A DNA stretch of 49,748 nt from an uncultured Hyphomicrobiales bacterium (lineage in GTDB: Bacteria > Bacteroidota > Ignavibacteria > Kapaibacteriales > UBA2268). The stretch spans positions 1 through 49,748 of the forward strand of contig CAZCLJ010000003.1 of assembly GCA_964499465.1 (NCBI GenBank). Reading direction: 5' to 3'. How positions within the stretch are numbered: position 1 is the first letter of the stretch; every line of letters begins with the position of its first letter. Made by a program: the position numbers and the translations under genes. A model generated the notes under the pieces. It made no database searches and was not told the origin of the DNA. It was given only the letters and a program-made list of their open reading frames with translations. This document shows positions 5,151 to 32,581 of the stretch, piece after piece.

Positions 5151-5276
5151 ATCATTAATCATTAATCATTAATCATTAATCATTAATCATTAATCACTAA
5201 TCACTAATCACTAATCACTAATCACTAATCACTAATCACTAATCATTAATCATTAATCATTAATCATTAATCACTA
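5151..5276. repeat. heptanucleotide microsatellite, 18 units
   Basis: Counted by hand: 6 x ATCATTA, 7 x ATCACTA, 4 x ATCATTA, 1 x ATCACTA. It ends 3 nt from the pgk stop codon (5280-5282). Confidence 0.95.
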
Positions 5277-5279
5277 TTT

Positions 5280-6470
5280 TCACTGTTGTAAAGCAGCTAT
5301 ACCGGGAAGTTCTTTGCCTTCAAGAAATTCAAGTGAAGCGCCTCCACCAGTTGAAATATGAGTAATTTTTTCTTTTAAATGCATTTGAATCACGGCTGCA
5401 GCTGAATCTCCACCACCGACAATGCTTATAGCGCCCTTATGAGTTGCATTGGCAAGAGAATTTGCAATTGAACGGGTGCCTTTGGAAAATTTATTCATTT
5501 CGAACACTCCCATAGGACCATTCCAGAAAATTGTTTTGGATTTTGTAATTTCATCAATGAAGATTTTTTGAGTTTCTTCTCCGATGTCCATACCCATCCA
5601 ATCTTTCGGCATTTCATTAAATTTAACGGTCTTTGCGTTGGCAGTATCTGAAAAAGCATCAGAAACAACCACATCAACAGGCAGTAATAGTTTTACATTA
5701 TTACTTTTTGCTTCCTGAATGAGTTCTTTAGCAAGTTCGATTTTGTCTTCTTCGACAATAGATTTTCCAATTTCATAACCCATTGCTTTAAAGAAGGTGT
5801 ACATCATTCCACCACCTAAAATAATTGTGTCGCATTTAGTCATCAGATTACGGATAACATCAATTTTTCCTGAGATTTTAGCGCCACCAATTACGGCGGT
5901 AAACGGATGAACAGGATTAATAATGGCTTTGCCGAGATATTCAATTTCATCAAGAAGTAATTTACCTGCATATTTTTCATTGAAAAATTTAGCTACTTCA
6001 AAAGTACTTGAGTGAGCGCGGTGAGCAGAACCGAATGCATCGTTAACATAAACATCAGCAAGTGATGCAAGCTGTTTTGCAAATTCATTGTCATTCATTT
6101 CTTCTTCTTTATGGAAACGCAGATTCTCAAGCAATACGATACTGCCGGCATCAGCTATTCGAATTGCATCAAGAGCTGGTTTCCCTATACAATCCTTAGC
6201 AAAATGAACTTTAAAACCGTATCTTTTTTTCAATACTTCTGCAACAGGACGAAGCGAGAATTTTGGATTCGATTCTCCTTTGGGTCTCCCTAAATGAGAC
6301 ATAACTATTGGCAAGCCACCATCGTCAATAATTTTATCTATCGTTGGGAGCGACTCGCGTATGCGGTTGTCATCGGTTACTTCTAAATCTTGATTCAGAG
6401 GAACGTTAAAATCTACTCTAAGCAGGACTTTTTTACCCTCAAACACTGTATCGTATATTGATTTTATCAT
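5280..6470 (-). CDS. pgk: phosphoglycerate kinase
   Basis: Full-length match to the PGK pattern (KKVLLRVDFNVPL, MSHLGRPKG, IGGAKISGKI, WNGPMGVFE, STGGGASLEFLEG). The start is probably the MIKSIYD Met, since the ORF track extends 5 codons further to 6485. Confidence 0.95.
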   Translation of the reverse strand: MIKSIYDTVFEGKKVLLRVDFNVPLNQDLEVTDDNRIRESLPTIDKIIDDGGLPIVMSHLGRPKGESNPKFSLRPVAEVLKKRYGFKVHFAKDCIGKPALDAIRIADAGSIVLLENLRFHKEEEMNDNEFAKQLASLADVYVNDAFGSAHRAHSSTFEVAKFFNEKYAGKLLLDEIEYLGKAIINPVHPFTAVIGGAKISGKIDVIRNLMTKCDTIILGGGMMYTFFKAMGYEIGKSIVEEDKIELAKELIQEAKSNNVKLLLPVDVVVSDAFSDTANAKTVKFNEMPKDWMGMDIGEETQKIFIDEITKSKTIFWNGPMGVFEMNKFSKGTRSIANSLANATHKGAISIVGGGDSAAAVIQMHLKEKITHISTGGGASLEFLEGKELPGIAALQQ

Positions 6471-8373: not shown

Positions 8374-8601
8374 CAGAACTCCTGATGCCTCGTAGTTTGC
8401 TATTGCGCATTTAATATAGTTCTGATATTAAAAATAATGTAATTTCAAAAAATAACAAGCATATAACTCCTAAATAAATTTAGGAGTTATTCTAATAATT
8501 AGAGTAACTCCCAAATTTATTTGGGAGATTAACTGCGCAATTGTTCTTTACGAGGCAAAACTCCTAACTCCTTTATTTTTGTTATGGGGGCTGGAGTTCT
8601 G
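8374..8601. repeat. composite MITE-like element (cagaactcc...ggagttctg ends, central double hairpin)
   Basis: Left end cagaactcctgatgcctcgtagtttgctattgcgca, with a degenerate inverted copy at 8534-8601. The centre carries aactcctaaataaatttaggagtt and aactcccaaatttatttgggag hairpins. Confidence 0.7.
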
Positions 8602-12751: not shown

Positions 12752-12969
12752 CAGAACTCATTAACGAAAATAAAGAGTTAATAGAATTGCCACGCACCGA
12801 ATAATTGCACAGTTAATCTCCATAATAAATTATGGAGTTAATCTAATTATTAGAATAACTCCCAAATTTATTTGGGAGTTATTAGTATGGTATTTTGTGA
12901 AATTACATTTTTTTTATATCAGAACTTTCTTAATTCCGAAATATCAAGCTACGTGGCATCTGGAGTTCT
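12752..12969. repeat. composite MITE-like element, inverse orientation copy
   Basis: cagaactca...ctccataataaattatggag...aactcccaaatttatttgggagtt...ctggagttct. The interior matches the reverse complement of 8410-8540. Confidence 0.7.
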
Positions 12970-14480: not shown

Positions 14481-15749
14481 TTAATCGATATATTCAAAAC
14501 CGCAATAAGGAACTAAAACGTCTGGAACGCGAATTCTTCCGTTTTCGTAGTATTGCTCTATGATTGATACTATTAGGCGGGACGTAGCAAGCCCGCTTCC
14601 ATTTAAGGTATGAACAAATTCCGGTTTAGAACTTGGAGTTCGCTTAAACCTAATAGCTGCTCTTCTTGCCTGAAAATCTTCAAAGTTAGAGCAACTGGAA
14701 CATTCCAACCATTTTTTTTCTGCTTGCGACCAACATTCCAAATCATAAGTCTTAGCACTCGAAAAACTTGTATCGCCCGAGCAAAGAGAAAGTACTCTAT
14801 AAGGAATTTGTAGTGCCTGAAGAATTTCCTCAACATCAGCAACAAGCAATTCCAATTCATTATAAGATTCTTCTGGCAAGCAAAGTTTGACAAGTTCTAC
14901 TTTATTGAATTGATGAACTCTTAAAAAGCCGCGTGTGTCTTTTCCATAGCTGCCAGCTTCACGACGAAAACACTGAGTAAAACCGCATACTTTGGTAGGA
15001 ATTTCTTCTACTTTCAAAATTTCGTTTGAAAAGAAATTGGTTAGTGGAACTTCAGCTGTTGGAATTAAATACAAATCATCTTTTTCGATGTAATACATAT
15101 CTTCAGCGAGTTTTGGGATTTGCCCTGTTCCGACCATAGAATTGCGATTAACAACAAGAGGTGGGATTAGTTCAGTGTAGCCGTGCTTTTCGATATGTAA
15201 ATCAAGCATATAATTAATTAAAGATCGCTCAAGTTTGGCACCCTTTCCAATATAATAAGCAAAACCAGCACCTGTAACCTTTGCGCCACGCTCAAAATCA
15301 AGTATGTTCAATTCTTTTGATATTGCAAGGTGGTCTTTGTAATTTCCATCAACTTTGGGGCTGCCCCAGTTGCGAACTTCAATATTATCTTCTGCTGTTT
15401 TTCCTATTGGCACGCTGTTATGAACCATATTTGGTATTTTTAGCTGCAAATTGAAAAGTTCCTGCTCAATTTCACGCAATTCATCATCAAGAATTTTAAT
15501 TCTATCTGAACATTCCTTCATTGCCTGGATTTTGTCGTCTGCATTTTCTTTTTGCCTTTTAAGCATTGCTATTTCATTAGAAACGACATTGCGGACATTT
15601 TTTAGCTGCTCAACTTCCAAAAGGTTTGCGCGCCTCTTCGAATCAACATCCATTATTTGTTCTACGACTTCGCTTGTTTTTTCATTTTTGTTAAGAATAT
15701 TTTGCTTAACGTTCTCACTATTTTCTCTAATAAATTTTAAATCTAACAT
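14481..15749 (-). CDS. serS: seryl-tRNA synthetase
   Basis: N-terminal coiled-coil arm followed by class II motifs (FRREAGS.G.DTRG..R.HQF.KVE, GSGLA.SR). Confidence 0.95.
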   Translation of the reverse strand: MLDLKFIRENSENVKQNILNKNEKTSEVVEQIMDVDSKRRANLLEVEQLKNVRNVVSNEIAMLKRQKENADDKIQAMKECSDRIKILDDELREIEQELFNLQLKIPNMVHNSVPIGKTAEDNIEVRNWGSPKVDGNYKDHLAISKELNILDFERGAKVTGAGFAYYIGKGAKLERSLINYMLDLHIEKHGYTELIPPLVVNRNSMVGTGQIPKLAEDMYYIEKDDLYLIPTAEVPLTNFFSNEILKVEEIPTKVCGFTQCFRREAGSYGKDTRGFLRVHQFNKVELVKLCLPEESYNELELLVADVEEILQALQIPYRVLSLCSGDTSFSSAKTYDLECWSQAEKKWLECSSCSNFEDFQARRAAIRFKRTPSSKPEFVHTLNGSGLATSRLIVSIIEQYYENGRIRVPDVLVPYCGFEYID

Positions 15750-15778
15750 ATTTTCTTTGTTTAAATGTATTTGAAAAA
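15732..15778. repeat. 47-bp direct repeat, copy 1 (native serS start region)
   Basis: aaattttaaatctaacatattttctttgtttaaatgtatttgaaaaa includes the serS ATG and its first 6 codons on the minus strand. Confidence 0.9.
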
Positions 15779-15781
15779 TAT

Positions 15782-16042
15782 TTATACGTATTCAAATTGT
15801 AAATTCACTTTATAACCTAAAGATAAAATTATTTCCTCGCAATCTTCCCATGTTAGACCGAATGCTTTAACATCGGAGAGTCCTATTCTGGCAATTATAT
15901 CTCTTATTAAATCAACATCCTGAGCATCGAATTCAGCTTCCATAAAGGATAGCTCAGCCCAACTTACTAATTCAGAAAGTGAAATGCGATGAGTAAGATA
16001 TTGCTTAATTTTGTTAAATATTTCATATTTAGTAATTTTCAT
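15782..16042 (-). CDS. hypothetical small protein (second gene of 2-gene cassette)
   Basis: 86-aa acidic ORF with a 4-nt ATGA-type overlap with the upstream ORF. No family recognised. Confidence 0.45.
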   Translation of the reverse strand: MKITKYEIFNKIKQYLTHRISLSELVSWAELSFMEAEFDAQDVDLIRDIIARIGLSDVKAFGLTWEDCEEIILSLGYKVNLQFEYV

Positions 16043-16284
16043 TTTACCTCCTTATGACCTTTATCAATTGGATATTTTTCATGAATTTCTACTAATTCAT
16101 CATATTGATTATAAATTTCCTGATAAAATTTTAATGTTGTTTCAACTTCATTTACTTCTTTTACATATCTTGCTTTCCAACCATATTTATCATCAACTTC
16201 ATAATAATAGATTCTTCCACCATTATCTAATTCATACCAATTAATGAATTTTTTTTCGTTTTCAAGTCTTTTCTTTTCAAACAT
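16039..16284 (-). CDS. hypothetical small protein (first gene of 2-gene cassette)
   Basis: 81-aa ORF translationally coupled to 15782-16042. No family recognised. Confidence 0.45.
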   Translation of the reverse strand: MFEKKRLENEKKFINWYELDNGGRIYYYEVDDKYGWKARYVKEVNEVETTLKFYQEIYNQYDELVEIHEKYPIDKGHKEVK

Positions 16285-16322
16285 AATTATTGACTTATTA
16301 TTTCACTTTATTATTTTATTCA

Positions 16323-16369
16323 AAATTTTAAATCTAACATATATTCTTTGTTTAAATGTATTTGAAAAA
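16323..16369. repeat. 47-bp direct repeat, copy 2 (orphan serS start region)
   Basis: It has one substitution relative to 15732-15778. On the minus strand it reads MLDLKF and then a stop. Confidence 0.9.
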
Positions 16370-16474
16370 AAACAAATTTACTAATTTTTTAAAATATAAG
16401 GTTAAGATAATTAGAGAAAAATTACTAATTTGAAAATTAGAAGAAGTCAATTTGAGAAGAAAAATAGAAGATTT

Positions 16475-17458
16475 ATGAAATTAGAAAATAAAAAATACAA
16501 TACTGTGATTGAAAAGAATACTTTTTACTTTTTTAATAAGGACTTTGAACAGCAGTATGAAGGATATATCAATTCATTAAAGGAAACATTACTTCTTTTA
16601 AAAAATGAAACAGAAAATAACGGATTTACAAAAGAAGTTTTTGAAAAGTTTTTATTTGAAAAAGAATATGGATTAAAAGCACTTTTAGCTTTAACTGGTT
16701 TTTCAAATGAATATTTTAAAAGACTAATCACTATCATTCGTATTTTGAATGATAAAGAGTTAAATAGGTTAATTTTAAAAGATAATTGGAACATAAATGA
16801 AAAATCTAGTTTTGAAAGCATAAGTGAGTGGTCAGACAATAAAATTGAGAACTTAATAAAAGAAAATGAATTTTTTAGAAAAGGCATTGTTAATCTGTTC
16901 TTTGAAGGGGCTACTATTCCATTTTTGACAAAAACAATTCCTTTATTTGAACTAAAAAAATTAAGTTTATCTAAACTTAAATTTGAAATTCCTGAGATGA
17001 TTGACACTTTAATCCGTTATAAGGAAAAAGGTTCTTATAACGGAAAAATAGAAAATAATCCAGAAACATTAATTAAATCAATTTTAAATGAGCTTAGTGT
17101 TGAGTTCGAGAAAGGAGATTTAACTGAATTAGTAACAGACGCTCCAGATAAAAAGCGAACAATGGATTTTATCATTCCAAACAAAACAAATCCAAGAATT
17201 ATTATTGAATATTCTTATCTCGTAACAACTTCCTCTGGTCAGGGAGATAAATCTAAAACTGAGATTTCAATAAATTCACTAATTACTCAGCACTATCCAA
17301 AAGCGAAGTTTATTGGCTTCGTTGATGGAATTGGCTGGTATGTTAGGAAAAAAGATTTAGAACGAATGGTAAATGCTTATTTTGATGTTTTTACTTTTCA
17401 CAATGATGAATTAGAGAGATTTGTAAAATTTATTAAAAAGGAGTTGAAAATTGTTTAA
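16475..17458 (+). CDS. putative type II restriction endonuclease
   Basis: The C-terminal MDFIIPNK..PRIIIEYSYLVTTSSGQGDKSK resembles the D..(E)x(K/S)...GSK nuclease core of some type II REases. The stop overlaps the start of the first methyltransferase. I prefer the ATG at 16475 over the TTG at 16430. Confidence 0.5.
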   Translation: MKLENKKYNTVIEKNTFYFFNKDFEQQYEGYINSLKETLLLLKNETENNGFTKEVFEKFLFEKEYGLKALLALTGFSNEYFKRLITIIRILNDKELNRLILKDNWNINEKSSFESISEWSDNKIENLIKENEFFRKGIVNLFFEGATIPFLTKTIPLFELKKLSLSKLKFEIPEMIDTLIRYKEKGSYNGKIENNPETLIKSILNELSVEFEKGDLTELVTDAPDKKRTMDFIIPNKTNPRIIIEYSYLVTTSSGQGDKSKTEISINSLITQHYPKAKFIGFVDGIGWYVRKKDLERMVNAYFDVFTFHNDELERFVKFIKKELKIV

Positions 17459-18434
17459 CGACCTAATTAATAAAATACATCAGGGCGATTGCTTAGAGCT
17501 TTTCAAACAGATACCAGATGACTCTGTTGATATTGCTTTTGCAGACCCACCTTTTAATTTAAATAAAAAATATAATAATAATAAAGATAAATTAAAAATA
17601 AAGGAATATCTTAACTGGTGCAGAAAATGGATAAATGAAATGGTTCGGGTAACAAAGCCGAGTGGTTCTATTTTTGTTCACAATATCCCAAAATGGCTGA
17701 CTTACTATTCTTCATTTCTCAATGAAATTGCGTATTTCAAGCACTGGATTAGCTGGGATGCAGCAACAGCGCCAATGGGAAAAACCTTGCAACCAGCACA
17801 CTATGGTATTCTTTTCTATACAAAACAGCCCCAAAATTTTAAATTCTACGAAGTTAGATGTCCTCATAAAAGAGCTCGAAAATCAAATATTTTAGCAAAA
17901 GATTATGGTGGGAAAAAAAGTTTGCTTCACCCATTTGGACCATTGGTTTCTGATGTTTGGACTGACATTCACCGCATTAAACACAATAAATACAGAGACG
18001 AGCATCCTTGCCAATTACCGATTCATTTGTTGGAAAGAATCATCTTGCTATCAACAGATGAAAACGATATAGTGCTTGACCCATTTAACGGAACTGGGAC
18101 AACAGCACTTGCTGCAAAGCGTTTGGGTAGAAACTTTATAGGATTTGATTTAAGCCAGGAATATATTGATATAACTAACTCGAAATTATCCAAGGAATTA
18201 TCAAATTCAAAAATTGGAGAAAAATGGGTAAGTTTTTATCTTAACCAAGTAGTTACTTTAAGGAATGATGATTGGGATTATTTAAAAGATTTCTTTTTTA
18301 TTCCAAAAAATCCAGTTGATATTGATACAATACAAATAATGCTAAAATCAAAAATTAAGCATATTCCAAATAAGAAAAACGGAAGTTCTGAAATTTCAAA
18401 CGAAAATCAAACTGCATTTTTATTTCCGGCTTAA
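17451..18434 (+). CDS. beta-class N6-adenine/N4-cytosine DNA methyltransferase, copy A
   Basis: Motif IV FADPPF near the N-terminus and motif I DPFNGTGTT near residue 210, the permuted order of PF01555-type enzymes. The TTG start overlaps the R gene stop. Confidence 0.9.
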   Translation: MFNDLINKIHQGDCLELFKQIPDDSVDIAFADPPFNLNKKYNNNKDKLKIKEYLNWCRKWINEMVRVTKPSGSIFVHNIPKWLTYYSSFLNEIAYFKHWISWDAATAPMGKTLQPAHYGILFYTKQPQNFKFYEVRCPHKRARKSNILAKDYGGKKSLLHPFGPLVSDVWTDIHRIKHNKYRDEHPCQLPIHLLERIILLSTDENDIVLDPFNGTGTTALAAKRLGRNFIGFDLSQEYIDITNSKLSKELSNSKIGEKWVSFYLNQVVTLRNDDWDYLKDFFFIPKNPVDIDTIQIMLKSKIKHIPNKKNGSSEISNENQTAFLFPA

Positions 18435-18442
18435 TTTTATAT

Positions 18443-19378
18443 ATGAATGAAAACTACATAAATAAAATTATAAATGACGATTGTTTGAATCATCTTTCGA
18501 ACTTGGAAGAAAATTCAATTGATTTGTTTCTGTCGGATATTCCTTACGGGATTTGCCTTGACGATTGGGACGTTTTACATAATAATACAAATTCTGCATT
18601 GCTCGGCACTTCTCCAGCTCAAAACGGGAAAAATGGATTTAAAAGACGTGGCAAACCAATTAATGGGTGGAGTTCGGCTGATAGAAATATTGGGAAAGAA
18701 TATCAGGAATGGGTGCAAAAGTGGTCAGATATGCTTTTTCCAGTAATGAAAGAAGGGGCTTTTCAATTTGTTTTTGGTGCAAGAAGGACAATTCACAGAG
18801 TTATAAATGCTTTTGAAAATTCTGGATTTCTTTTAAAAGATATTTTAGCTTGGAAAAAGCCATCTGCTCACCATAGGGCTCAAAAATTTTCTAACATTCT
18901 GCAAAATAGAGGACTTGAAGAAGAAATTGAAATATGGAATGGTTGGCGGCTTGGCAATTTAGCTCCTATTTATGAACCGATTGCTTGGTTTTTCAAGCCA
19001 TATAAAATAACTATAACTGATAATATCTTAAAATATGGAGTTGGCGCTATTAATACTGAAGATTGCAAAATAAACGGAGCAAGCCCAACAAACTTATTGG
19101 AATTTGGTTTTTCAAAAAATGAGAATAGATTTCACGAAGCTCAGAAACCATTAGAATTAATTGAATTTTTAATTAAATTAACTACTCGTGAAGAACAAAT
19201 TATTCTTGACCCATTTATGGGAAGTGGAACAACAGCATTAGCAGCTAAAAGGTTAAACAGAAAGTTTATTGGCTTTGAAATTAATGTAGATTATTACAAT
19301 GCTGCAATAGATAGAATTGAACAAAATAATTCTTCATTATTTTTTAATGGATTAGAAAAAGAATGTAGCTTGTTCTGA
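18443..19378 (+). CDS. second, distinct beta-class DNA methyltransferase
   Basis: Motif IV-like LSDIPYG at the N-terminus and motif I DPFMGSGTTALAAKRL near the C-terminus. Outside these motifs it is only distantly related to copies A and B. Confidence 0.85.
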   Translation: MNENYINKIINDDCLNHLSNLEENSIDLFLSDIPYGICLDDWDVLHNNTNSALLGTSPAQNGKNGFKRRGKPINGWSSADRNIGKEYQEWVQKWSDMLFPVMKEGAFQFVFGARRTIHRVINAFENSGFLLKDILAWKKPSAHHRAQKFSNILQNRGLEEEIEIWNGWRLGNLAPIYEPIAWFFKPYKITITDNILKYGVGAINTEDCKINGASPTNLLEFGFSKNENRFHEAQKPLELIEFLIKLTTREEQIILDPFMGSGTTALAAKRLNRKFIGFEINVDYYNAAIDRIEQNNSSLFFNGLEKECSLF

Positions 19379-19412
19379 ACTGATTTAATAATTCAAGATT
19401 TTCTATCTAACA

Positions 19413-20396
19413 ATGTTTAACGACCTAATTAATAAAATACATCAGGGCGATTGCTTAGAGCTTTTCAAACAGATACCAGATGACTCTGTTGATATTGCTT
19501 TTGCAGACCCACCTTTTAATTTAAATAAAAAATATAATAATAATAAAGATAAATTAAAAATAAAGGAATATCTTAACTGGTGCAGAAAATGGATAAATGA
19601 AATGGTTCGGGTAACAAAGCCGAGTGGTTCTATTTTTGTTCACAATATCCCAAAATGGCTGACTTACTATTCTTCATTTCTCAATGAAATTGCGTATTTC
19701 AAGCACTGGATTAGCTGGGATGCAGCAACAGCGCCAATGGGAAAAACCTTGCAACCAGCACACTATGGTATTCTTTTCTATACAAAACAGCCCCAAAATT
19801 TTAAATTCTACGAAGTTAGATGTCCTCATAAAAGAGCTCGAAAATCAAATATTTTAGCAAAAGATTATGGTGGGAAAAAAAGTTTGCTTCACCCATTTGG
19901 ACCATTGGTTTCTGATGTTTGGACTGACATTCACCGCATTAAACACAATAAATACAGAGACGAGCATCCTTGCCAATTACCGATTCATTTGTTGGAAAGA
20001 ATCATCTTGATTTCAACTGATGAAAACGATATAGTGCTTGACCCATTTAACGGAACTGGAACAACAGCACTTGCTGCAAAGCGTTTGGGTAGAAACTATA
20101 TTGGATTTGATTTGAGTCTGGAATATATTGATATAACTAACTCAAAATTATCCAAGGAATTATCAAATTCAAAAATTGGTGAAAAATGGGTGAGTTTTTA
20201 TCTTAACGAAGTAGTAACTTTAAGAAATGATGATTGGGATTATTTAAAAGATTTCTTCTTTATACCCAAAAATCCAGTTGATATTGATACAATTCAAATA
20301 TTGTTAAAATCAAAAATTAAGCATATTTCAAATAAGAAAAATGGAAGTTCTGAAATTTCAAATGAAAATCAAACTGCATTTTTATTTCCGGCTTAA
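19413..20396 (+). CDS. beta-class DNA methyltransferase, copy B (near-identical to 17451-18434)
   Basis: 327 aa with 6 aa differences from copy A. It has an ATG start and its own upstream spacer. Confidence 0.9.
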   Translation: MFNDLINKIHQGDCLELFKQIPDDSVDIAFADPPFNLNKKYNNNKDKLKIKEYLNWCRKWINEMVRVTKPSGSIFVHNIPKWLTYYSSFLNEIAYFKHWISWDAATAPMGKTLQPAHYGILFYTKQPQNFKFYEVRCPHKRARKSNILAKDYGGKKSLLHPFGPLVSDVWTDIHRIKHNKYRDEHPCQLPIHLLERIILISTDENDIVLDPFNGTGTTALAAKRLGRNYIGFDLSLEYIDITNSKLSKELSNSKIGEKWVSFYLNEVVTLRNDDWDYLKDFFFIPKNPVDIDTIQILLKSKIKHISNKKNGSSEISNENQTAFLFPA

Positions 20397-20416
20397 TTTA
20401 TTAGAATTATTTAATT

Positions 20417-21187
20417 TTACTTACCCGGACAAATTATTGATTTGATTTCGTTGCTAATTTGAAATTCTTTGTATGGTTTAAATTTATAAATAGCTTTTTT
20501 TATATGGCTATATTTAGAAAGGTCGCCTGCTGCACATTTTTCCCAGTAAGAGTATGCTTCATCATTTGTAAATCCGCAGAATTGCATTAAAACAAGTGCT
20601 GAGGCATAACCAGATTGGTGCCAGCCATTCCAGCAATGTATGTATATTGGTCCGGCAGTCGAATCTTTTATATTGTTATAAACTAATTCTAAAAATTGCT
20701 TTATATCCTTTTCGTTTGATAATGAGTTTTGTATATAATTCAAGGATTTACTATTTATATCAGGTCCTATTGATTTTTTTGAATCAGCAAAATTTTTGGA
20801 ATATAAATAAATAACAGTTGAAAATCCTTCTTCGAGCAAATTTTCAAGACCTTCTTCTGGCATTGGATTTTCATTGTCTCTTTTATTATTTTTATTATAA
20901 TAGTTGTTTGCTCCTCCACGATAAACAATTCCATTTAATACAACCCGCATATTTCTCGTTCCATAAACCGAAGGGCAGTTTTCACCAAAATTGTCTGTGA
21001 TTTTATCATAAAGCGATGATGTTTTATATTTTTCTTCATATTTTGTTGCTCTTTCCTTTAAGTAGTTAAAATCATGTTTTTGAGCAAGTAAAGAAAAAGC
21101 AAATAAGAATAAAATAAGATAGGTATATTTTTTTAAACTATACGTTTTAAATAAATTAGTTTTTATCATAATTTTAAAAAATAACAT
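20417..21187 (-). CDS. secreted protein-tyrosine/dual-specificity phosphatase-like protein with atypical P-loop
   Basis: N-terminal hydrophobic signal (YTYLILFLFAFSLLAQ). IYIHCWNGWHQSGYASAL resembles the HCX5R(S/T) loop, but Gln occupies the Arg position. Confidence 0.5.
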   Translation of the reverse strand: MLFFKIMIKTNLFKTYSLKKYTYLILFLFAFSLLAQKHDFNYLKERATKYEEKYKTSSLYDKITDNFGENCPSVYGTRNMRVVLNGIVYRGGANNYYNKNNKRDNENPMPEEGLENLLEEGFSTVIYLYSKNFADSKKSIGPDINSKSLNYIQNSLSNEKDIKQFLELVYNNIKDSTAGPIYIHCWNGWHQSGYASALVLMQFCGFTNDEAYSYWEKCAAGDLSKYSHIKKAIYKFKPYKEFQISNEIKSIICPGK

Positions 21188-21347: not shown

Positions 21348-21390
21348 AAATATGCGAAATAACATACTAAGAGTCATCAGGAGTTCTGCA

Positions 21391-21446
21391 TTACTTCAAA
21401 AAGCAATGTTCATACACTTTCGGCTCTATTTTATTTGCTAATAATT
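21391..21446 (-). repeat. orphan copy of the 3' end of the NPPY methyltransferase gene
   Basis: ttacttcaaaaagcaatgttcatacactttcggctctattttatttgctaataatt compares with 24125- ttacttcaaaaagcaatgttcatacacttttggctcaattttctttgctaataatt. Confidence 0.8.
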
Positions 21447-21460
21447 GCAATACAAAAATA

Positions 21461-21922
21461 TTAGTCTCTAATTGATGGACATATTTCATGGTCAGGGTCA
21501 AACCATAAAATTTTTAAATATCCTGATTCTCGGATACCCCATATTCGTGATTTTCCATCTAACCGAAGTGAAAATAATTGGTCAATGTCATCAAGATGTA
21601 GCTCTATTAGCCGTTTTTGAGCTTCTTTAATAATATTGGAAATATCTACAGAATGATGTTTAGATTTACCTTTAGAACCAAAAGATTGTGTTTCAAGTTC
21701 ATTCCATTTACTACATTCAAAACTTTTTAGTTTATCAAGAATTTTTTTATAGTATTCAATATCTTCACTGATTATTTTCCTGGACCAATAAGGTTCTAAA
21801 TCCATTGTTCTAAACTGCCAAGATATAAAATGATTCTTACAAGTTGCTGGTTCTAAATGTTTAGGAGTTTTATTGAATTCTTCATCATTAAAAATTGATT
21901 TAGGATTTTTATTCTTTTTCAT
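21461..21922 (-). CDS. hypothetical protein, candidate toxin/effector of Panacea operon
   Basis: 153 aa with a 4-nt overlap with the Panacea gene. The C-terminal LFSLRLDGKSRIWGIRESGYLKILWFDPDHEI weakly resembles RelE/ParE/HigB-type terminal strands. Confidence 0.45.
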   Translation of the reverse strand: MKKNKNPKSIFNDEEFNKTPKHLEPATCKNHFISWQFRTMDLEPYWSRKIISEDIEYYKKILDKLKSFECSKWNELETQSFGSKGKSKHHSVDISNIIKEAQKRLIELHLDDIDQLFSLRLDGKSRIWGIRESGYLKILWFDPDHEICPSIRD

Positions 21923-22512
21923 AATGAACTATAATATTCAGCCATTGATTCTAAAGTAATAATATTATTTCCTCTATCTGTTGGTGACAAACCTTCTCTT
22001 GAAATTAACCATGGTTCTTCATTGTGTGTTAAATCTATTAACCATTGAGCTTGACGATTACCATAATAATTTAAGACTGAGTCAATGGTTTCTTTTTGTG
22101 TAGGGCTTAATTTATCTGGATTTCCATTTTCAATTTTCTCTACTTGAAAATGACCTCGATGAAAATTAAATAATTCTCTAATTACAGGGCCATTAGACCA
22201 AGCTTCAATATTTTCAAAAAATAAAGGTGCTTCATCCCATACTAAAGACCAGGCTTGGCAATAGTATAATAATTTATGTAATTTCATAGATGACATTTGC
22301 CCTAACTTCTTTAAAATATAAGCAGCAACATCAAAAACAGATATTCTAATAGCTGAAGTTTGTGCATTAATATTTTTTGTTAATTCTTCTTTATTTTGCC
22401 ATTTTACTTTTTCATTTTCTATAGTATTACTCAAAAGTTTACTTTCACTACTATAAAAATTGGGATTACTTTTAAATTCTGGCTTAATAGTATTTATTGA
22501 ATTGATGTTCAT
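21919..22512 (-). CDS. Panacea (DUF4065, SocA-like) antitoxin-domain protein
   Basis: VFDVAAYILKKLGQMSSMKLHKLLYYCQAWSLVWDEAPLFFENIEAWSNGPVIRELF matches the DUF4065 core (KLqKLLYY.Q.w.l......lf.e..eAW..GPV). A ~60-aa N-terminal extension precedes it. Confidence 0.75.
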   Translation of the reverse strand: MNINSINTIKPEFKSNPNFYSSESKLLSNTIENEKVKWQNKEELTKNINAQTSAIRISVFDVAAYILKKLGQMSSMKLHKLLYYCQAWSLVWDEAPLFFENIEAWSNGPVIRELFNFHRGHFQVEKIENGNPDKLSPTQKETIDSVLNYYGNRQAQWLIDLTHNEEPWLISREGLSPTDRGNNIITLESMAEYYSSL

Positions 22513-23038: not shown

Positions 23039-23256
23039 TAAAAAATTGTTAACCCAATTTTCTGTGAGGATATATTAATTCCATCCGCCAGTAATAGTTA
23101 ATACCTCAAAATCTGATAACATTTTCATAATAAATACTTTATTTCAAAAAATTAATATACAAAATTAATAATTATAAACTCAATATAATAAAAATTATTT
23201 TAAAATCATTTTATCAGAGATTATATTTTTAATTATTTAATCAATTGTTTTTCTAT

Positions 23257-23316
23257 TTCAAAAAGCAATGTTCATAGACCTTAGACTCTATTTTCTTTGC
23301 TAATATTTTTAATTTA
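23257..23316 (-). repeat. orphan, more diverged copy of the 3' end of the NPPY methyltransferase gene
   Basis: ttcaaaaagcaatgttcatagaccttagactctattttctttgctaatatttttaattta. Confidence 0.7.
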
Positions 23317-23327
23317 ATATATTGACA

Positions 23328-23504
23328 TTATACTATAGTTGATTTTGTAATAAACTTCAATCTACGTTCTTCAAAATATTTCTTCAATTCTTCAAAACTC
23401 ATATTTTGTATATCATTACTTATACTATCTCTTACTTCGCGCATAAATTTTACTGCTTTGAAGTTTGGAATTACTTCATTTTTAATATTTTTAATATTTT
23501 TCAT
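23328..23504 (-). CDS. small protein downstream of PIN gene (antitoxin-like)
   Basis: 58-aa ORF MKNIKNIKNEVIPNFKAVKFMREVRDSISNDIQNMSFEELKKYFEE... It is below the ORF-track cutoff, so I translated it by hand. It overlaps the PIN stop by 14 nt. Confidence 0.4.
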   Translation of the reverse strand: MKNIKNIKNEVIPNFKAVKFMREVRDSISNDIQNMSFEELKKYFEERRLKFITKSTIV

Positions 23505-23961
23505 AGTTTATAAGCTCCTTTGGTGAACGAATATCAATAGGTTTATAACCGTTTTTAATATTGACTGCATTGTATCCTCTTATTTTAACAACATTTACAA
23601 GATGTTTAAAATTCCAACTAACTAAAACATCTATATTATTAATAGTTGCCAAAGCAATATGGAAACAATCGTTACGACTGGTTTTGCCAACAACATTCTC
23701 ATCAATATATGAATCAGCGAGTAAAACTGCATCTTCTGTTAGTTCGACTTTAATTTTCAAATTTTCTGGAACTGAATTCAACAGTTTTTTTACTTGCAAA
23801 GGTGCTGTCAGTAATTCATCTTCAGTAACACTTGAAATTACAATGATATATTCACCAGAAATTATACTATTAAATAATTTTTGAGTTTCATTGGCAAATT
23901 CCTTATCATAGTATCCACCGATAACAGAAGTGTCTATATATAGTTTTAATTGTTTATTCAT
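23491..23961 (-). CDS. PIN-domain protein (VapC-like)
   Basis: 156 aa. LYIDTSVIGG (first acidic residue), ...EDELL..., and a later D/N-rich segment NDCFHIALA...VSWNFKHL, consistent with a PIN fold. Confidence 0.7.
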   Translation of the reverse strand: MNKQLKLYIDTSVIGGYYDKEFANETQKLFNSIISGEYIIVISSVTEDELLTAPLQVKKLLNSVPENLKIKVELTEDAVLLADSYIDENVVGKTSRNDCFHIALATINNIDVLVSWNFKHLVNVVKIRGYNAVNIKNGYKPIDIRSPKELINYEKY

Positions 23962-24124
23962 CGTTCATTCAGTTTTGTAAACTTAATTAGTTAAACGAAT
24001 AATATTATTAATAATTGCATAACTTTTAGATTTAAAAGTTTATTAGAGAAATAGATAATTTTCTTTTATACCTTTTTCTTTTTTAATTATCAAATATGAA
24101 AAGTTTATTATATGTGGTAAAACA

Positions 24125-25705
24125 TTACTTCAAAAAGCAATGTTCATACACTTTTGGCTCAATTTTCTTTGCTAATAATTTTAATTTATCGCGTAAGATG
24201 CTGATTAATTCCATATATAGTTCATCGTTGCTTTTGTTGTTCATTTTACCTTTTTCGTTGCGTCCCTGAAAATGCTCGCGAATATCATAAAGAGATGCAT
24301 TTACGTTGCATTTGGGCTGTGCGTGATAATATTTCCAAAGCTCCCTACCTGCATCGAAAACTGCTTGGGCTTCGCTTGAAAAAACAAGCGGAGTTGTTCT
24401 ATTGTTAAATTCATCCGATGACTTGAAGTCATCGGATGAATGAAATATCTCATTACTTTCATTTTTTTCAAAGCTATACTTTTTCAACTTTCCTCTTATA
24501 AAATCACTCATAAAACTGCTTTCAAACTTCTCTCTTGAGTTTACTTCCTGCTCTGTAAATGGAATCCAGTGGTTTGTTCCTTCTTTTGATGTAATCCTGT
24601 TTTGGCTGTGGAATAATGAAAAAGCAAGGCAGTCATTTTGAAACTCTGTATCTGCTTTCCAGCCATCATTTGGAAATAAGAACTGGTCGCGGTCGTTCAG
24701 CCAGGTTGCTTCAAGACAATTATGTATTGTAAAATAAATACTTTGCACAGGTAAATTAAGTGGCGTTACCTTTGAAGTATGGTCTTTATTATCAAAACTA
24801 CTAATATGCACACCACGAACGCTTTGAAAATCATTTCTGCCGTGATGCATTACTCCAATTACATTTTTGTTCGTATTGCTATAATAAATTCGTAACCAAT
24901 CATTTATCCTTTTCAAACCATTATAATCTAAAATATTCTTGTTGGAAAGCTTATTTCCTTTTTCATCATAAACATCAAAATTAAAACTTGAGAATTTATG
25001 CTCTAAATCTGTATTCCAAATTTTAAATCCTATTGGAAAATAACCTTTTACATTATCAAAAGTATAAGCTGGAACAAGAAAGCCATTTTCTAATTTTGCC
25101 AGAAAATTCTGTCGGAAAGTAAAAGAATCTAAACCAGTCAAATGCTTGATTTTAGAAAATTCCGCTATTTTGCAACCTTTAAATATTGTGTAAATCTGCC
25201 ATAGAAATTGAATAAAAATCTCATTGCTTGCTTTTCTTAATTCATTATAATATTTTTTGCTAACCGCTGTTTCTTTTACTCCTGCTTTATTTTGTCTTGA
25301 ATCTTTATTCCCTGCTTCCGCATACGGCGGATTAATATACATAACTAATTTTTTTCTTTTTTCTGGGTTATTAATAATATCAAAAAGTGGTTTAGGCAGT
25401 TTTTCGAAATCATCATTTAAGAAATCGAATTGAAAAACGTGGTCTTCAAGCAGGTTTGTCCCGTTTTTAATTCGGTCTTTCATTACCTCCACATCTTGCT
25501 TATCCAAAGTCGAAGCCCAGACATTATATTTATTTATAAGTCCGGTAAGCAAATTACCCGTTCCAGCGGCGCAATCCCAAACGTAGTATTCATCTTGCCA
25601 ATTCTCACCAAGCACATCTGTTATATATTTTTGAGAAAGCTCCACCCATATTTGTGGAGTAAAGAAACTGCCCTTTCGCTCCCTCTCTTCTTTTGGCATA
25701 AGCAA
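24125..25705 (-). CDS. N-terminally truncated paralogue of the 830-aa enzyme: gamma-class N6-adenine methyltransferase plus C-terminal (TRD-like) region, without the nuclease domain
   Basis: 526 aa, collinear with residues ~305-830 of the 25815-28307 product. Motif I WDCAAGTGNLL and motif IV YINPPYAEAGNK are retained. Confidence 0.8.
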   Translation of the reverse strand: MLMPKEERERKGSFFTPQIWVELSQKYITDVLGENWQDEYYVWDCAAGTGNLLTGLINKYNVWASTLDKQDVEVMKDRIKNGTNLLEDHVFQFDFLNDDFEKLPKPLFDIINNPEKRKKLVMYINPPYAEAGNKDSRQNKAGVKETAVSKKYYNELRKASNEIFIQFLWQIYTIFKGCKIAEFSKIKHLTGLDSFTFRQNFLAKLENGFLVPAYTFDNVKGYFPIGFKIWNTDLEHKFSSFNFDVYDEKGNKLSNKNILDYNGLKRINDWLRIYYSNTNKNVIGVMHHGRNDFQSVRGVHISSFDNKDHTSKVTPLNLPVQSIYFTIHNCLEATWLNDRDQFLFPNDGWKADTEFQNDCLAFSLFHSQNRITSKEGTNHWIPFTEQEVNSREKFESSFMSDFIRGKLKKYSFEKNESNEIFHSSDDFKSSDEFNNRTTPLVFSSEAQAVFDAGRELWKYYHAQPKCNVNASLYDIREHFQGRNEKGKMNNKSNDELYMELISILRDKLKLLAKKIEPKVYEHCFLK

Positions 25706-25814: not shown

Positions 25815-28262
25815 TCATTTCTTCAAAAAACCATATTCATACACTTTTGGCTCAATTTTCTTTGCTAATGATTTTAATTTATCGCGTAGAATGCTGATTA
25901 ATTCCATATATCTTTCATCGCTACTTTTGTTGTTCATTTTTCCTTTTTCATTGCGTCCCTGAAAATGCTCACGAATGTCGTAAAGAGATGCGTTTACGTT
26001 GCAGTTGGGCTGTGAATGATAATACATCCAAAGCTCCCTGCCTGCATCGAAAACAGCTTGGGCTTCGCTTGAAAAAACGAGCGGAGTTGTTCTATTGTTA
26101 AATTCATCAGATGACTTGAAGTCATCGGATGAATGAAATATCTCATTACTATCATTTTTTTTAAAGCTATACTTTTTCAGTTTCCCTCTTATAAAATCAG
26201 CGATGAAACTGCTTTCAAACTTTTCTCTGGAATTTACTTCCTGCTCTGTGAATGGAATCCAGTGGTTAATTCCTTCCTGTGAAGTAATTCTGTTTTGGCT
26301 GTGAAATAAAGTAAAAGCAAGGCAGTCGTTTTGAAACTCTGTGTCTGCTTGCCAGCTGTCATTTGGATATAAAAACTGGTCGCGGTCGTTTAGCCAAGTC
26401 GCTTCAATGCAATTATGTATTGTAAAATAAATACTTTGCATAAGTAAATTATGTGGAGTTATCTTTGAAGTATGGTCTTTATTGTCAAAACTACTAATAT
26501 GCACACCGCGAACACTTTGAAAATCATTTCTGCCGTGATGCATTACTCCAATGACGTTTTTATTCGTATTGCTATAATGAATTCGTAACCAATCGTTTAT
26601 CCTTTTCAAACCATTATAATCAAAAATATTCTTGTTGGAAAGCTTGTTTCCTTTTTCATCATAAACATCAAAATTAAAACTTGAGAATTTATGCTCTGAA
26701 TCTGTATTCCAAATTTTAAAACCAATTGGGAAAGAACCTGTTACATTATCAAAAGTATAAGCAGGAACAAGAAATCCTTTTTCTAATTTTGCCAGAAAAT
26801 TCTGCCTGAATGTAAAAGCATCTAACCCAGTTAAATGCTTAATTTTAGAAAACTCCGCTATTTTGCAACCTTTAAATTTAGTATATATCTGCCAAAGAAA
26901 TTGAATAAAAATTTCATTACTGGCTTTTCTTAATTCATTATAATACTTCTTGCTTACTGCTGTTTCTTTTATTCCTGATTTATTTTTTCTTGATGATTTG
27001 TTTCCCGCTTCAGCATAGGGCGGATTAATATAAATGACTAATTTTTTTATTTTTTCCGGATTATTGATAATATCGAAAAGCGGTTTAGGTAGTTTCTCAA
27101 AATCATCATTTAAGAAATCGAATTGAAAAACGTGGTCTTCAAGCAGGTTTGTCCCGTTTTTAATTCGGTCTTTCATTACCTCTACATCTTGCTTATCCAA
27201 GGTAGAAGCCCAGACATTATATTTATTTATAAGCCCTGTAAGCAAATTACCCGTTCCCGCAGCGCAATCCCAGACATAGTATTCATCTTGCCAATTCTCA
27301 CCAAGCACATCAGCTATATATTTTTGAGAAAGTTCCACCCATATTTGCGGAGTGAAAAAACTGCCCTTTCGTTCCCTGACATCCTGTGGAACGAGCAAAT
27401 CGCGACGCTCTACAATATAGTCCCAGTATTCTTCTTTTGGTGGTCTTTCGTATTTGTTCCAAAATTGATTATGCTGCTTTTGTCCGTCATTAAAAGTAGT
27501 AGTTCTGGAGCTGAACATACCCATTTCATCGAATTTTCTGTCCAATTCGTAGTGGTCTTTTTTGAGCAGAACAAAGAGTTTTTCCTTAAGAGATACATTT
27601 TCGTAAGAAAGCAAATCAGCTAGGTAAAAGTCGCCATCAATAATCCCGTTTTTCTTTGCAATTTCCCAATTTACAGCAATAGTTGGCTTTACAGTTTGCA
27701 GCCATTTATTGTAAATGTTCATAAAATTATTTTTATCTATTCTGATTTTTGTTAAGCCGAACTTACCAACGACGAAATTGTTTTTGATAAACTTGAGCAG
27801 TTCTTTATCATTTTTTTCAAAATAAAAGAGCAATGCTTTTTCGTCAATAATGATTTTTACTTTATTTTCAACGAACTGAAACTCTTTTGTATCATGATTG
27901 GAAGGAGTAACATTCCAGTTGAAATCGTTCATATAAAATACATCGTGAATTTCGCTATATGGAATGAAAGCGATTTTTTCAGAATCGAAAGCACCAAGCA
28001 GAGCAGGGGGGAGGTGCTGAACGAAAGTTCTGGCTTTACCAATAGTCAAGATAAGCTGAGTGATAGATTTATAAATATCAGAAATTCCTTTTTTTGCCTC
28101 AGCCCAAAGAAGAGATTCGTGTTCAAAAAGCTGGTTTTTCGTTTGATGGAAAGAGACGCAAAAATCCACATTGCCAATAATTTTGGAGCAATCATACTGC
28201 CAGAAATAATCCTGAGCAATTTTATTTTTGAGTTCTTCTTCTCTTATGTTTGAATATTTCAT
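25815..28262 (-). CDS. fused PD-(D/E)xK nuclease / NPPY N6-adenine methyltransferase (type IIG/IIL-like R-M enzyme)
   Basis: N-terminal GNVDFCV...ESLLWAEAKKG is a D...ExK arrangement. WDCAAGTGNLL (motif I) precedes INPPYAEAGNK (motif IV), the gamma-class order. A ~400-aa C-terminal region could be a TRD. The MKYSNIREE start at 28262 is preferred; the ORF extends to 28307. Confidence 0.7.
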   Translation of the reverse strand: MKYSNIREEELKNKIAQDYFWQYDCSKIIGNVDFCVSFHQTKNQLFEHESLLWAEAKKGISDIYKSITQLILTIGKARTFVQHLPPALLGAFDSEKIAFIPYSEIHDVFYMNDFNWNVTPSNHDTKEFQFVENKVKIIIDEKALLFYFEKNDKELLKFIKNNFVVGKFGLTKIRIDKNNFMNIYNKWLQTVKPTIAVNWEIAKKNGIIDGDFYLADLLSYENVSLKEKLFVLLKKDHYELDRKFDEMGMFSSRTTTFNDGQKQHNQFWNKYERPPKEEYWDYIVERRDLLVPQDVRERKGSFFTPQIWVELSQKYIADVLGENWQDEYYVWDCAAGTGNLLTGLINKYNVWASTLDKQDVEVMKDRIKNGTNLLEDHVFQFDFLNDDFEKLPKPLFDIINNPEKIKKLVIYINPPYAEAGNKSSRKNKSGIKETAVSKKYYNELRKASNEIFIQFLWQIYTKFKGCKIAEFSKIKHLTGLDAFTFRQNFLAKLEKGFLVPAYTFDNVTGSFPIGFKIWNTDSEHKFSSFNFDVYDEKGNKLSNKNIFDYNGLKRINDWLRIHYSNTNKNVIGVMHHGRNDFQSVRGVHISSFDNKDHTSKITPHNLLMQSIYFTIHNCIEATWLNDRDQFLYPNDSWQADTEFQNDCLAFTLFHSQNRITSQEGINHWIPFTEQEVNSREKFESSFIADFIRGKLKKYSFKKNDSNEIFHSSDDFKSSDEFNNRTTPLVFSSEAQAVFDAGRELWMYYHSQPNCNVNASLYDIREHFQGRNEKGKMNNKSSDERYMELISILRDKLKSLAKKIEPKVYEYGFLKK

Positions 28263-28369
28263 TTTAATTTTCGTTTGGAAAACAAAAAGCAAATACATTT
28301 TTTGCAAATTACGAAAAAATTGAAGAACAATATTTATAGAAAAGAAATTCAGTTTATTATCAATTCAAA

Positions 28370-28663
28370 TTTAAACTCTAACTCTCCCAATTTTAAGTAA
28401 TTGAAAGATTTATTAAGTAAAAAACGCATACATTTTTCTTACTGCTAGTAAAATCACCATAATAAATTATGGTGATACTCTAATTCTTAGATTAACTCCC
28501 AAATTTATTTGGGAGTTAATTTCCAATAAAGAGCGTAAAATCCTTAAACCATAAATACGTAATAGATTATTTGTTATAAAATTCAAGATAAACTGCTACT
28601 AATCTATATTTATTAAAAAAATAAATAAAGTAATACGTAAATTTGGGAGAGTTAGAGTTTAAA
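28370..28663. repeat. MITE-like element with ~24-bp terminal inverted repeats
   Basis: tttaaactctaactctcccaattt (28370-28393) pairs with aaatttgggagagttagagtttaaa (28639-28663). The interior carries the same double-hairpin module (28454-28517). Confidence 0.75.
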
Positions 28664-31795: not shown

Positions 31796-31858
31796 ATCAC
31801 TAATCACTAATCACTAATCACTAATCACTAATCACTAATCACTAATCACTTATCATTA
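31796..31858. repeat. heptanucleotide microsatellite, 9 units
   Basis: 7 x ATCACTA, then ATCACTT, then ATCATTA. The last unit contains the complement of the yggS stop codon (31856-31858). Confidence 0.95.
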
Positions 31859-32581
31859 AAGGTTATAATTCCTTTCACCGAAGAGATTTGTTCCAATACG
31901 TATTAAAGTAGCACCTTCTTCAATGGCAATCTGATAATCTCCGGACATTCCCATTGAGAGATGGTGAATATTTAGGTCTGGAAATATTTTATTTACTTCA
32001 TCAAATTTTTGATGAAGTAATTTAAATTCAGAGCGAATAATACTTTCATTATTGGAAAAAGAGCCGATAGTCATTAGACCTTTAATTGAAATATTTTTAA
32101 GTTTTGAAATCTGTTCAAATAGATTTAAAGTATCGTTTGGGGAGCAGCCGAATTTTGATTCTTCTAAAGATGTATTAACCTGAATTAAAATATCAATATT
32201 TCTGTTAATATTTTCAGCTTGTTTGGAAATTTCCTGAGCAAGCAGAAAAGAATCAACAGAATGGACAAGCGAAACGAAGTCAATGATATATTTAACTTTA
32301 TTGCGTTGCAAGTGTCCAATGAAATGCCATTTGGGGCTGTATTTTGTGTGTTCAATCTGATTATGTTTTTCAAGAAGTTCCTGAACATAGTTCTCGCCGA
32401 TATTACTGATGCCAGTATTTAAAGCAAACTCGACAAAAGAAATTGGCTTTGTTTTCGAAACAGCAATGACAGTTATGTCATTTGCATTTCTGTTGCATTT
32501 TTTAGCAGTAGAAATAATATTGTTATTAATTTCGCTCCAGCGTTGATTTATATCACTTTGGGTTAATGGCTCATTTTTCAT
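31856..32581 (-). CDS. yggS: YggS family pyridoxal-phosphate homeostasis protein
   Basis: AVSKTKP, GENYVQEL, WHFIGHLQRNKVKYI, LSMGMSGDY..AIEEGAT.IRIGT.LFG. The MKNEPL start at 32581 is preferred; the ORF extends to 32620. Confidence 0.85.
   Translation of the reverse strand: MKNEPLTQSDINQRWSEINNNIISTAKKCNRNANDITVIAVSKTKPISFVEFALNTGISNIGENYVQELLEKHNQIEHTKYSPKWHFIGHLQRNKVKYIIDFVSLVHSVDSFLLAQEISKQAENINRNIDILIQVNTSLEESKFGCSPNDTLNLFEQISKLKNISIKGLMTIGSFSNNESIIRSEFKLLHQKFDEVNKIFPDLNIHHLSMGMSGDYQIAIEEGATLIRIGTNLFGERNYNL

Follow-up and report, generated by a model that had tools for sequence, protein, structure and literature searches.

Why should one restriction endonuclease gene be followed by three methyltransferase (MTase) genes, two of which are nearly identical and enclose the third? 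The question is raised by a locus in a stretch of DNA of 49,748 nucleotides (nt), hereafter the window (contig CAZCLJ010000003.1 of GenBank assembly GCA_964499465.1), from an uncultured bacterium assigned to the Kapaibacteriales within the Ignavibacteria. A preliminary description had placed a restriction-modification (RM) locus at 16430-20396, and an endonuclease gene with methylases is indeed found there, except that the starts of homologues move the beginning of the former from a TTG at 16430 to the ATG at 16475. The gene order it had given (endonuclease, MTase A, a distinct MTase, MTase B) stands as well, and we refer to these genes as R1, M327 copy A, M311 and M327 copy B (Table 1). Both copies of M327 encode 327 amino acids (aa), A starting with a TTG that overlaps the R1 stop codon and B with an ATG. 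The four genes are co-directional, with no predicted terminators between them; a promoter and terminator scan of the four-gene block yielded nothing useful, and Rfam reported no matches.

The locus is composed of parts of two unrelated type II RM systems, all components of which come from known families and only the arrangement of which is an unusual variant. The layout is real and old, an evolutionary by-product of known kinds of rearrangement that requires neither a new system nor a new mechanism. Taken as a whole, it is probably best explained as a two-system composite with a selected M311 orphan and an old duplication of M327, one copy of which was deleted in relatives and recently converted in the lineage of the window.

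Two unrelated systems in one locus

R1 comprises a helical N-terminal domain and an alpha/beta core at the C-terminus. Its homologues number in the thousands at ~70% aa identity, from Ignavibacteria and Bacteroidales to bacteria of the candidate phyla radiation (CPR) and one Altiarchaeales archaeon, and some close ones carry the NCBI name "DpnII family type II restriction endonuclease". Translated from the ATG at 16475, R1 matches Pfam RE_BanI (PF24447) with 30.6 bits (cut-off 28) over the C-terminal ~100 aa only, and Pfam DpnII (PF04556) with 25.2 bits (cut-off 23), the latter match being marginal and partial (residues 221-308 only). Searches of the PDB with the single sequence or a 35-sequence profile revealed no match, the Foldseek search with the AlphaFold model (predicted local distance difference test score, pLDDT, 74.7) reported nothing significant (best E=0.2), and the plasmid search returned no matches to R1 and only generically named methylases for M327. 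Judged by its sequence, R1 probably belongs with the PD-(D/E)XK-type endonucleases, as a relative of the DpnII and BanI families.

Both M327 and M311 exhibit the beta-class arrangement of PF01555, with motif IV near the N-terminus and motif I nearer the C-terminus (E-values from 1e-41 to 1e-52): M327 (E=7e-52) has DPPF at residue 32 and FNGTGTT at residue 212, and M311 (E=9e-41) has DIPY at residue 32 and FMGSGTT at residue 258. The matches of the three methylases to PF02086 are weak and confined to the region that binds AdoMet (S-adenosylmethionine). The solved relatives nearest to M327 are M.MboIIA, M.BceJIV and CcrM. They were uninformative as to its site, as their own sites differ (GAAGA, GTWWAC and GANTC, respectively).

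The R1-M327 unit was surveyed in 80 other genomes carrying R1. M327 directly follows R1 in 70 of them and comes after an insert of ~1.7 kb in 8 more, so that it is the sole family partner of R1 in 78; the earlier remark that a third, redundant copy is unusual is borne out, a second M327 being present in 0 of the 80. The regular occurrence of M327 as the single partner marks R1-M327 as self-sufficient: it is a complete, very widespread and widely mobile two-gene unit that normally works with a single methylase, and in the window copy A is the cognate partner of R1, translationally coupled to it. This makes R1-M327 a highly conserved pair (~70% identity from CPR bacteria to archaea) with neither a solved structure nor a measured specificity.

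The ~1.7-kb gene between R1 and M327 was found in loci L029 (6971-8662), L033, L041, L046, L065, L068, L084 and L089; in L029 it encodes a GmrSD-family type IV restriction enzyme (PF03235 and PF07510). Other defence genes seem to have inserted repeatedly at the junction of R1 and M327.

M311 belongs to a widespread family (~75% identity), 119 of 120 members of which share the DIPY motif IV. Its homologues at 59-87% identity (L098-L104 and most JGI loci with enough flank) have directly upstream an RE_HindIII gene, the product of which matches the structure of R.HindIII (PDB 2E52, E=1e-46). A tblastn search of the window found no HindIII-like endonuclease gene, so the pairing of the M.HindIII family with an R.HindIII homologue holds for the relatives of M311 and not for this locus, where M311 is without its partner. 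The ratio of non-synonymous to synonymous substitution rates (dN/dS) of M311 against relatives is 0.02-0.08. M311 is an orphan of the M.HindIII family, foreign to R1-M327, whose endonuclease has been lost and which is kept by strong purifying selection. An Ignavibacteria metagenome-assembled genome (MAG; GCA_012522895.1) contains R1-M327 and R.HindIII-like-M311 at two separate loci, and in the 80-genome survey M311 stands beside R1 only in the window's own clade, apart from a degenerate remnant in L088, a Bacteroidales MAG. This remnant (L088 8223-8496) corresponds to residues 1-91 of M311 and lies downstream of R1-M327, indicating that the order R1-M327-M311 also occurs outside the Kapabacteria clade.

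According to the mechanism that we propose, R1 would cut unmethylated sites and both copies of M327 would protect those same sites, copy A by expression coupled to R1 and copy B from its own ATG, while M311 would add an independent mark without restriction. Copy B, with its motifs intact, is presumably active.

Mosaic and history of the M327 copies

Relatives of the locus, linked like it to serS, are available in L005 and L006 (96% DNA identity) and in L007-L012 and L018 (93%). Within the window, the exact gapless comparison of copies A and B (offset 1962) confirmed that the duplicated segment nearly coincides with the coding sequence, the homology extending from the second base of the start codon to 3 nt past the stop codon. 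Nucleotides 2-597 are identical, while 24 substitutions fall in nt 598-984, of which the NG86 method counts 18 as synonymous and 6 as non-synonymous (L200I, F229Y, Q236L, Q266E, M297L and P306S); the numbers read by eye beforehand (~595 identical nt, about two dozen substitutions, 6 aa changes) were accurate throughout. If substitutions were spread evenly, the chance of all 24 falling in the last 387 of 983 positions would be 1.9e-10; the identity boundary is as sharp as had been described. The identical tract of 596 nt spans motifs IV-VIII and the presumed target-recognition region.

In the 387 nt of the 3' part, copy A differs from L005 at 12 positions, from copy B at 24 and from L007 at 25, and the corresponding counts for copy B are 23 (L005) and 26 (L007). 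As the divergence of the copy-B 3' part is at the level of the L007 split, this part is as old as the deepest split of the strain cluster, an age that agrees with the relatives once having had copy B. A divergence between the copies (24/387) comparable to that between A and L007 (25/387), next to a 5' part without differences, argues for the earlier proposal of a recent gene conversion over the 5' part laid on an older duplication. In the diverged part the dN/dS of A against B is 0.07, and R1 and M327 against relatives show 0.02-0.08. The simplest reading of the sequences, and the one that fits the mosaic best, is an old duplication with a recent conversion tract that would start at the 5' edge of homology and reach nt 597.

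The mosaic could also have been imported from other strains, either a foreign 3' segment having entered copy B or a foreign 5' segment both copies. In the 3' part, copy A clusters with L005 (bootstrap 0.99) and copy B with M327 of L154, with which it shares four derived sites (686, 804, 852 and 855); moreover, the shared 5' tract is further from L005 (5.2% diverged) than the flanking R1 and copy-A 3' part (2.6%; Fisher p=0.006). However, the grouping of B with L154 is weak (bootstrap 0.61), the two differ at 22 of 387 sites, and import alone leaves unexplained an identity of A and B that begins precisely at the homology edge and runs to nt 597. We regard import as a doubtful explanation of the mosaic, and one that is compatible with conversion rather than exclusive of it. 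As to the direction of conversion, the greater distance of the tract from L005 hints that copy B may have been the donor.

How old the duplication is can be read from the relatives. L005, L006, L007-L012 and L018 all have R1-M327-M311 followed, right after the M311 stop codon, by the last ~50 nt of M327. In L005, L006 and L007 the junction reads ...AGCTTGTTCTGAAATTTCAAACG..., with M311 fused to the copy-B 3' end at GTTCTGAA, and the relatives thus equal the window minus 975 nt bounded by the two GTTCTGAA octamers. L005 and L007 lack the 34-nt spacer that separates M311 from copy B. In L152 its first 24 nt come after a frameshifted M311, with no M327 behind them. The recurrence of these 24 nt after M311 in an independent contig indicates that M311 followed by the spacer is ancestral and M311 fused directly to the remnant derived. 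Upstream of M311, the window and the relatives have the same 8-nt junction (M327A-TAATTTTATAT-ATG of M311), so the two forms differ by one indel. We propose that an old duplication of M327 flanking M311 would predate the split from relatives 93-96% identical in DNA; that the relatives would have lost copy B by a single microhomology deletion of 975 nt between GTTCTGAA octamers, leaving the ~50-nt remnant; and that in the lineage of the window both copies would have stayed intact, with a recent intragenomic gene conversion homogenising the 5' 596 nt up to the edge of homology.

L152 (JGI Ga0116184_10170089, 1-1022) contains the frameshifted M311, the 24-nt start of the spacer, a hairpin and 74 nt that match the R1 leader (window 16418-16491), after which an unrelated open reading frame (ORF) takes the place of R1; this is further cassette shuffling in another strain.

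Several observations weigh against the proposed history. The closest relative of the window, L005, has the deleted form in common with L007, which is more distant. A degraded 36-nt remnant of the M327 3' end also lies right after the M311 stop codon in L098, the R.HindIII-like-M311 locus of the Ignavibacteria MAG named above (score 40 against a null of 20±3, z=6.3), indicating that M311 and M327 were neighbours before these lineages (~85% DNA identity) diverged; its presence at an unrelated locus means that the simple model understates the age and complexity of the history. The deleted form in L098, L007 and L005 next to a full copy in the window points either to recurrent deletion at the octamers or to a long-lived polymorphism with strain exchange. 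Furthermore, the low dN/dS between A and B may be inherited from functional alleles of other strains and is no proof of selection on B in place, and the lack of differences in 596 nt may partly reflect collapse by the assembler, which would soften the boundary and not remove it. The loss of copy B in the other lineages examined suggests that it is dispensable; where retained, it may bring an advantage as an extra or R-independent methylase, or may be a by-product not yet deleted and kept by conversion.

An opposite order of events, with the recent entry of M311 into R1-M327, must also be considered. Campbell-type recombination of an M327-M311 circle may yield exactly the structure M327-M311-M327, and the ~50-nt remnants in the relatives would then be separate short target duplications. 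Such a process is documented for RM genes (PMC2853133), two clear cases occur in the same island (a 47-nt repeat of the serS 5' end and 63-nt repeats of a methylase 3' end, see below), and L154 and L013 resemble empty sites. The left junction, however, is identical in the window and the relatives, which argues for one indel and not for separate insertions; the change from the relatives' form to that of the window would need an in-register insertion of the spacer plus 941 nt, whereas the reverse needs only a single microhomology deletion; and the A and B 3' parts are 6.2% diverged, equal to the deepest strain split. We therefore consider a recent insertion quite unlikely. Campbell-type integration might nonetheless be how M311 originally arrived between two M327 copies.

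The direct repeats might be of consequence in themselves. With 596 identical nt on either side, M311 and one M327 copy would be liable to RecA-dependent excision or amplification, and the looping out of M311 suggested earlier is mechanistically plausible. No loop-out or amplification product of M311 between the repeats was observed. L154, which has R1-M327 without M311 and a copy-B-like 3' part, is by its structure either a loop-out product or an empty site; it is compatible with looping out without proving it, and the similarity between its downstream flank and the L007 region after the remnant is too weak to be used for this purpose. We can go further and speculate, with little expectation of being right, that the M327 copies serve as portable homology arms, by which M311 is excised as a 1962-bp circle, amplified or moved between R1-M327 genomes. 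If true, the locus would switch one methylation mark reversibly by recombination, and the L098 remnant would be a footprint of its travels.

That the duplication is an assembly artefact, with strain variants of one M327 stitched into two copies or the repeat mis-threaded, was a reasonable concern given a metagenome-type assembly, an exact 596-nt repeat exceeding short-read length and a triple arrangement found in no other assembly of the collections (exact-protein look-ups for M311, copy B and the predicted C-terminal fragment of copy B likewise found nothing outside the window). It is nevertheless very unlikely: all four junctions are unique sequences that allow only one linear path from R1 to the downstream flank, the relatives hold the copy-B remnant at the predicted place, and the M311-spacer junction recurs in L152. 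In addition, four independent Logan assemblies with exact R1 stop at 17481, exactly 30 nt beyond the base at which A and B start to match, as expected for a branch of a k=31 graph at the repeat, and L006, a relative without copy B, assembles straight through. Copy B is genuine; for the number of M327-M311 units and the perfect 5' identity the evidence is still the assembly. Least probable of all is a single type IIS-like system with an asymmetric site, as the two different MTases had first suggested, in which one strand would be modified by M327, the other by M311, and the third gene would be superfluous: two different beta-class MTases do adjoin one endonuclease and M311 is kept under purifying selection in every close relative, but the two methylases are not co-inherited with the endonuclease across relatives (M327 alone at 78 of 80 R1 loci, M311 just once and degenerate, in L088), the family of M311 pairs with R.HindIII homologues, and one Ignavibacteria MAG has the two units at separate loci.

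The composite with an old duplication, deletion in relatives and recent conversion thus offers a clear and datable view of how RM loci are rebuilt in uncultivated Kapabacteria/Ignavibacteria, readable from sequence alone. Four processes are seen at once: an orphan methylase outliving its endonuclease in a foreign operon, methylase duplication, concerted evolution, and loss of a copy at a defined microhomology.

Site depletion and genomic neighbourhood

GATC is the most depleted tetranucleotide of the window, with 5 sites against ~109 expected (observed-to-expected ratio, O/E, 0.05), and it is likewise rare in L005 (0 against 21 expected) and L007 (1 against 21). AAGCTT is not depleted (16 sites, O/E 0.87), compared with an O/E of 0.62 in loci with R.HindIII-M311. 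The near-absence of GATC together with the undepleted AAGCTT fits an R1-M327 that acts on GATC, a likely but unproven specificity judged from sequence, and an unpartnered M311 that, by analogy with its family, is probably an AAGCTT methylase without an endonuclease. The GATC assignment has to be set against three observations: CTAG (O/E 0.17), CATG (0.19), GGCC (0.30) and GTAC (0.35) are also low in the window, so that other systems may have left their mark on the genome; the DpnII and BanI matches of R1 are marginal and limited to the C-terminal ~100 aa; and 77 other R1 loci have a median O/E of 0.57, not clearly stronger than the 0.70 of control loci, so that the assignment relies on the window's own lineage. 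The broad avoidance of short palindromes suggests long exposure to several restriction systems.

Table 1. Features of the R1-M327-M311 locus and GATC sites of the window
Feature	Position	Strand	Remark
R1, restriction endonuclease, 327 aa	16475..17458	+	start set by homologues
M327 copy A, beta-class N6-adenine methyltransferase	17451..18434	+	TTG start overlaps R1 stop
M311, M.HindIII-family methyltransferase	18443..19378	+	orphan at this locus
Spacer between M311 and copy B, 34 nt	19379..19412	+	native M311 3' flank in its first 24 nt
M327 copy B, intact, full-length, 327 aa, ATG start	19413..20396	+	all motifs present
Tract identical in A and B, 596 nt, candidate gene-conversion tract	17452..18047 (= 19414-20009)	+	0 differences
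Diverged 3' tract of copy A	18048..18437 (copy B counterpart 20010-20399)	+	24 substitutions
Octamer GTTCTGAA at M311 stop codon, left deletion end in relatives	19372..19379	+	
Second octamer GTTCTGAA within copy B nt 935-942, right end of 975-nt deletion	20347..20354	+	
GATC sites in window	12154, 15223, 28731, 28862, 31772		

Immediately upstream of R1, a 47-nt direct repeat (29 nt of upstream sequence and the initial 18 nt of serS) at 15732-15778 and 16323-16369 encloses a 544-nt insert (15779-16322) with two small overlapping ORFs of 86 aa (15782-16042) and 81 aa (16039-16284), for which Pfam and PADLOC reported no match. L007-L012 have one copy of the repeat and no insert, and L006 is without 16047-16362. 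The arrangement is a model case of insertion with long target duplication, L007 providing the empty site.

The same island contains a second duplicated methylase-like gene, on the minus strand at 24125-25705 and 25815-28307. Its product of 830 aa exhibits NPPY and DCAAGTG motifs and has no Pfam match; the 526-aa paralogue is shorter at the N-terminus, and the two are ~91% identical in DNA over the 300 nt compared. The last ~63 nt of this NPPY gene occur four times (21389-21451, 23251-23313, 24123-24185 and 25816-25878; 81-92% identity), the extra copies flanking small modules with a SocA/Panacea antitoxin-like gene (21919-22512) and its neighbours and with a PIN-domain gene (23491-23961). Like the M327 remnant in the relatives, the extra copies represent scars or else target duplications. 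Immediately downstream of copy B, the minus strand encodes a 256-aa protein (20417-21187), the position of which is kept in the relatives and which shows a weak match to dual-specificity phosphatases (PF00782, 22 bits, below the cut-off). Elsewhere the window contains a 189-nt tandem repeat array (866-2107), arrays of the 7-nt unit ATCACTA/ATCATTA (5158-5290 and 31796-31860), and three copies of a 67-nt double-hairpin intergenic element (8464-8530, 12815-12881 and 28452-28518), which is also found downstream of the M327 remnant in L007-type relatives.

Comparison with known systems

R1-M327 resembles the DpnII/MboI-type IIP systems (GATC) in that R1 passes the Pfam DpnII cut-off, an N6-adenine MTase adjoins it and the host DNA is nearly devoid of GATC. 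It differs in that the match is marginal and slightly inferior to that of RE_BanI, and in that the cognate methylase is here a single beta-class enzyme. The classical DpnII cassette comprises the alpha-class, Dam-like DpnM and DpnA, whereas all three methylases of the window are beta-class members of PF01555. The literature searched contained no paper on the "DpnII family" with GATC.

The likeness of M311 to the HindIII system (AAGCTT) lies in its homologues, which are encoded downstream of proteins matching R.HindIII, and in the family DIPY motif, which M311 retains. Unlike that system, the window has no R.HindIII-like gene and no depletion of AAGCTT, and M311 is situated inside the operon of another system.

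Insertion with long target duplication has been described for RM genes by Nobusato, Furuta and Kobayashi (PMC2853133). As in their cases, resident sequence is directly repeated on both sides of a foreign modification gene, neither a transposase nor an integrase is present, and single-copy forms exist in L013 and L154. The repeat, however, is here a whole functional gene of 987 nt and not 30 to ~100 bp (PMC2853133), the insert is a lone methylase and not a pair of endonuclease and methylase, and the repeats are old and partly homogenised. The single-copy forms are found at another locus (L013) or with a different downstream flank (L154), and no strictly allelic empty site for M311 was found among the relatives.

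Finally, the M327 copies invite comparison with the concerted evolution of duplicated bacterial genes. No duplicated cognate methylase with gene conversion was described in the literature searched. What the two have in common is a sharp change within a direct repeat, from 0% divergence, in a tract that reaches the edge of homology, to 6.2%; the difference is that here it is found between two copies of a methylase that protects against restriction.

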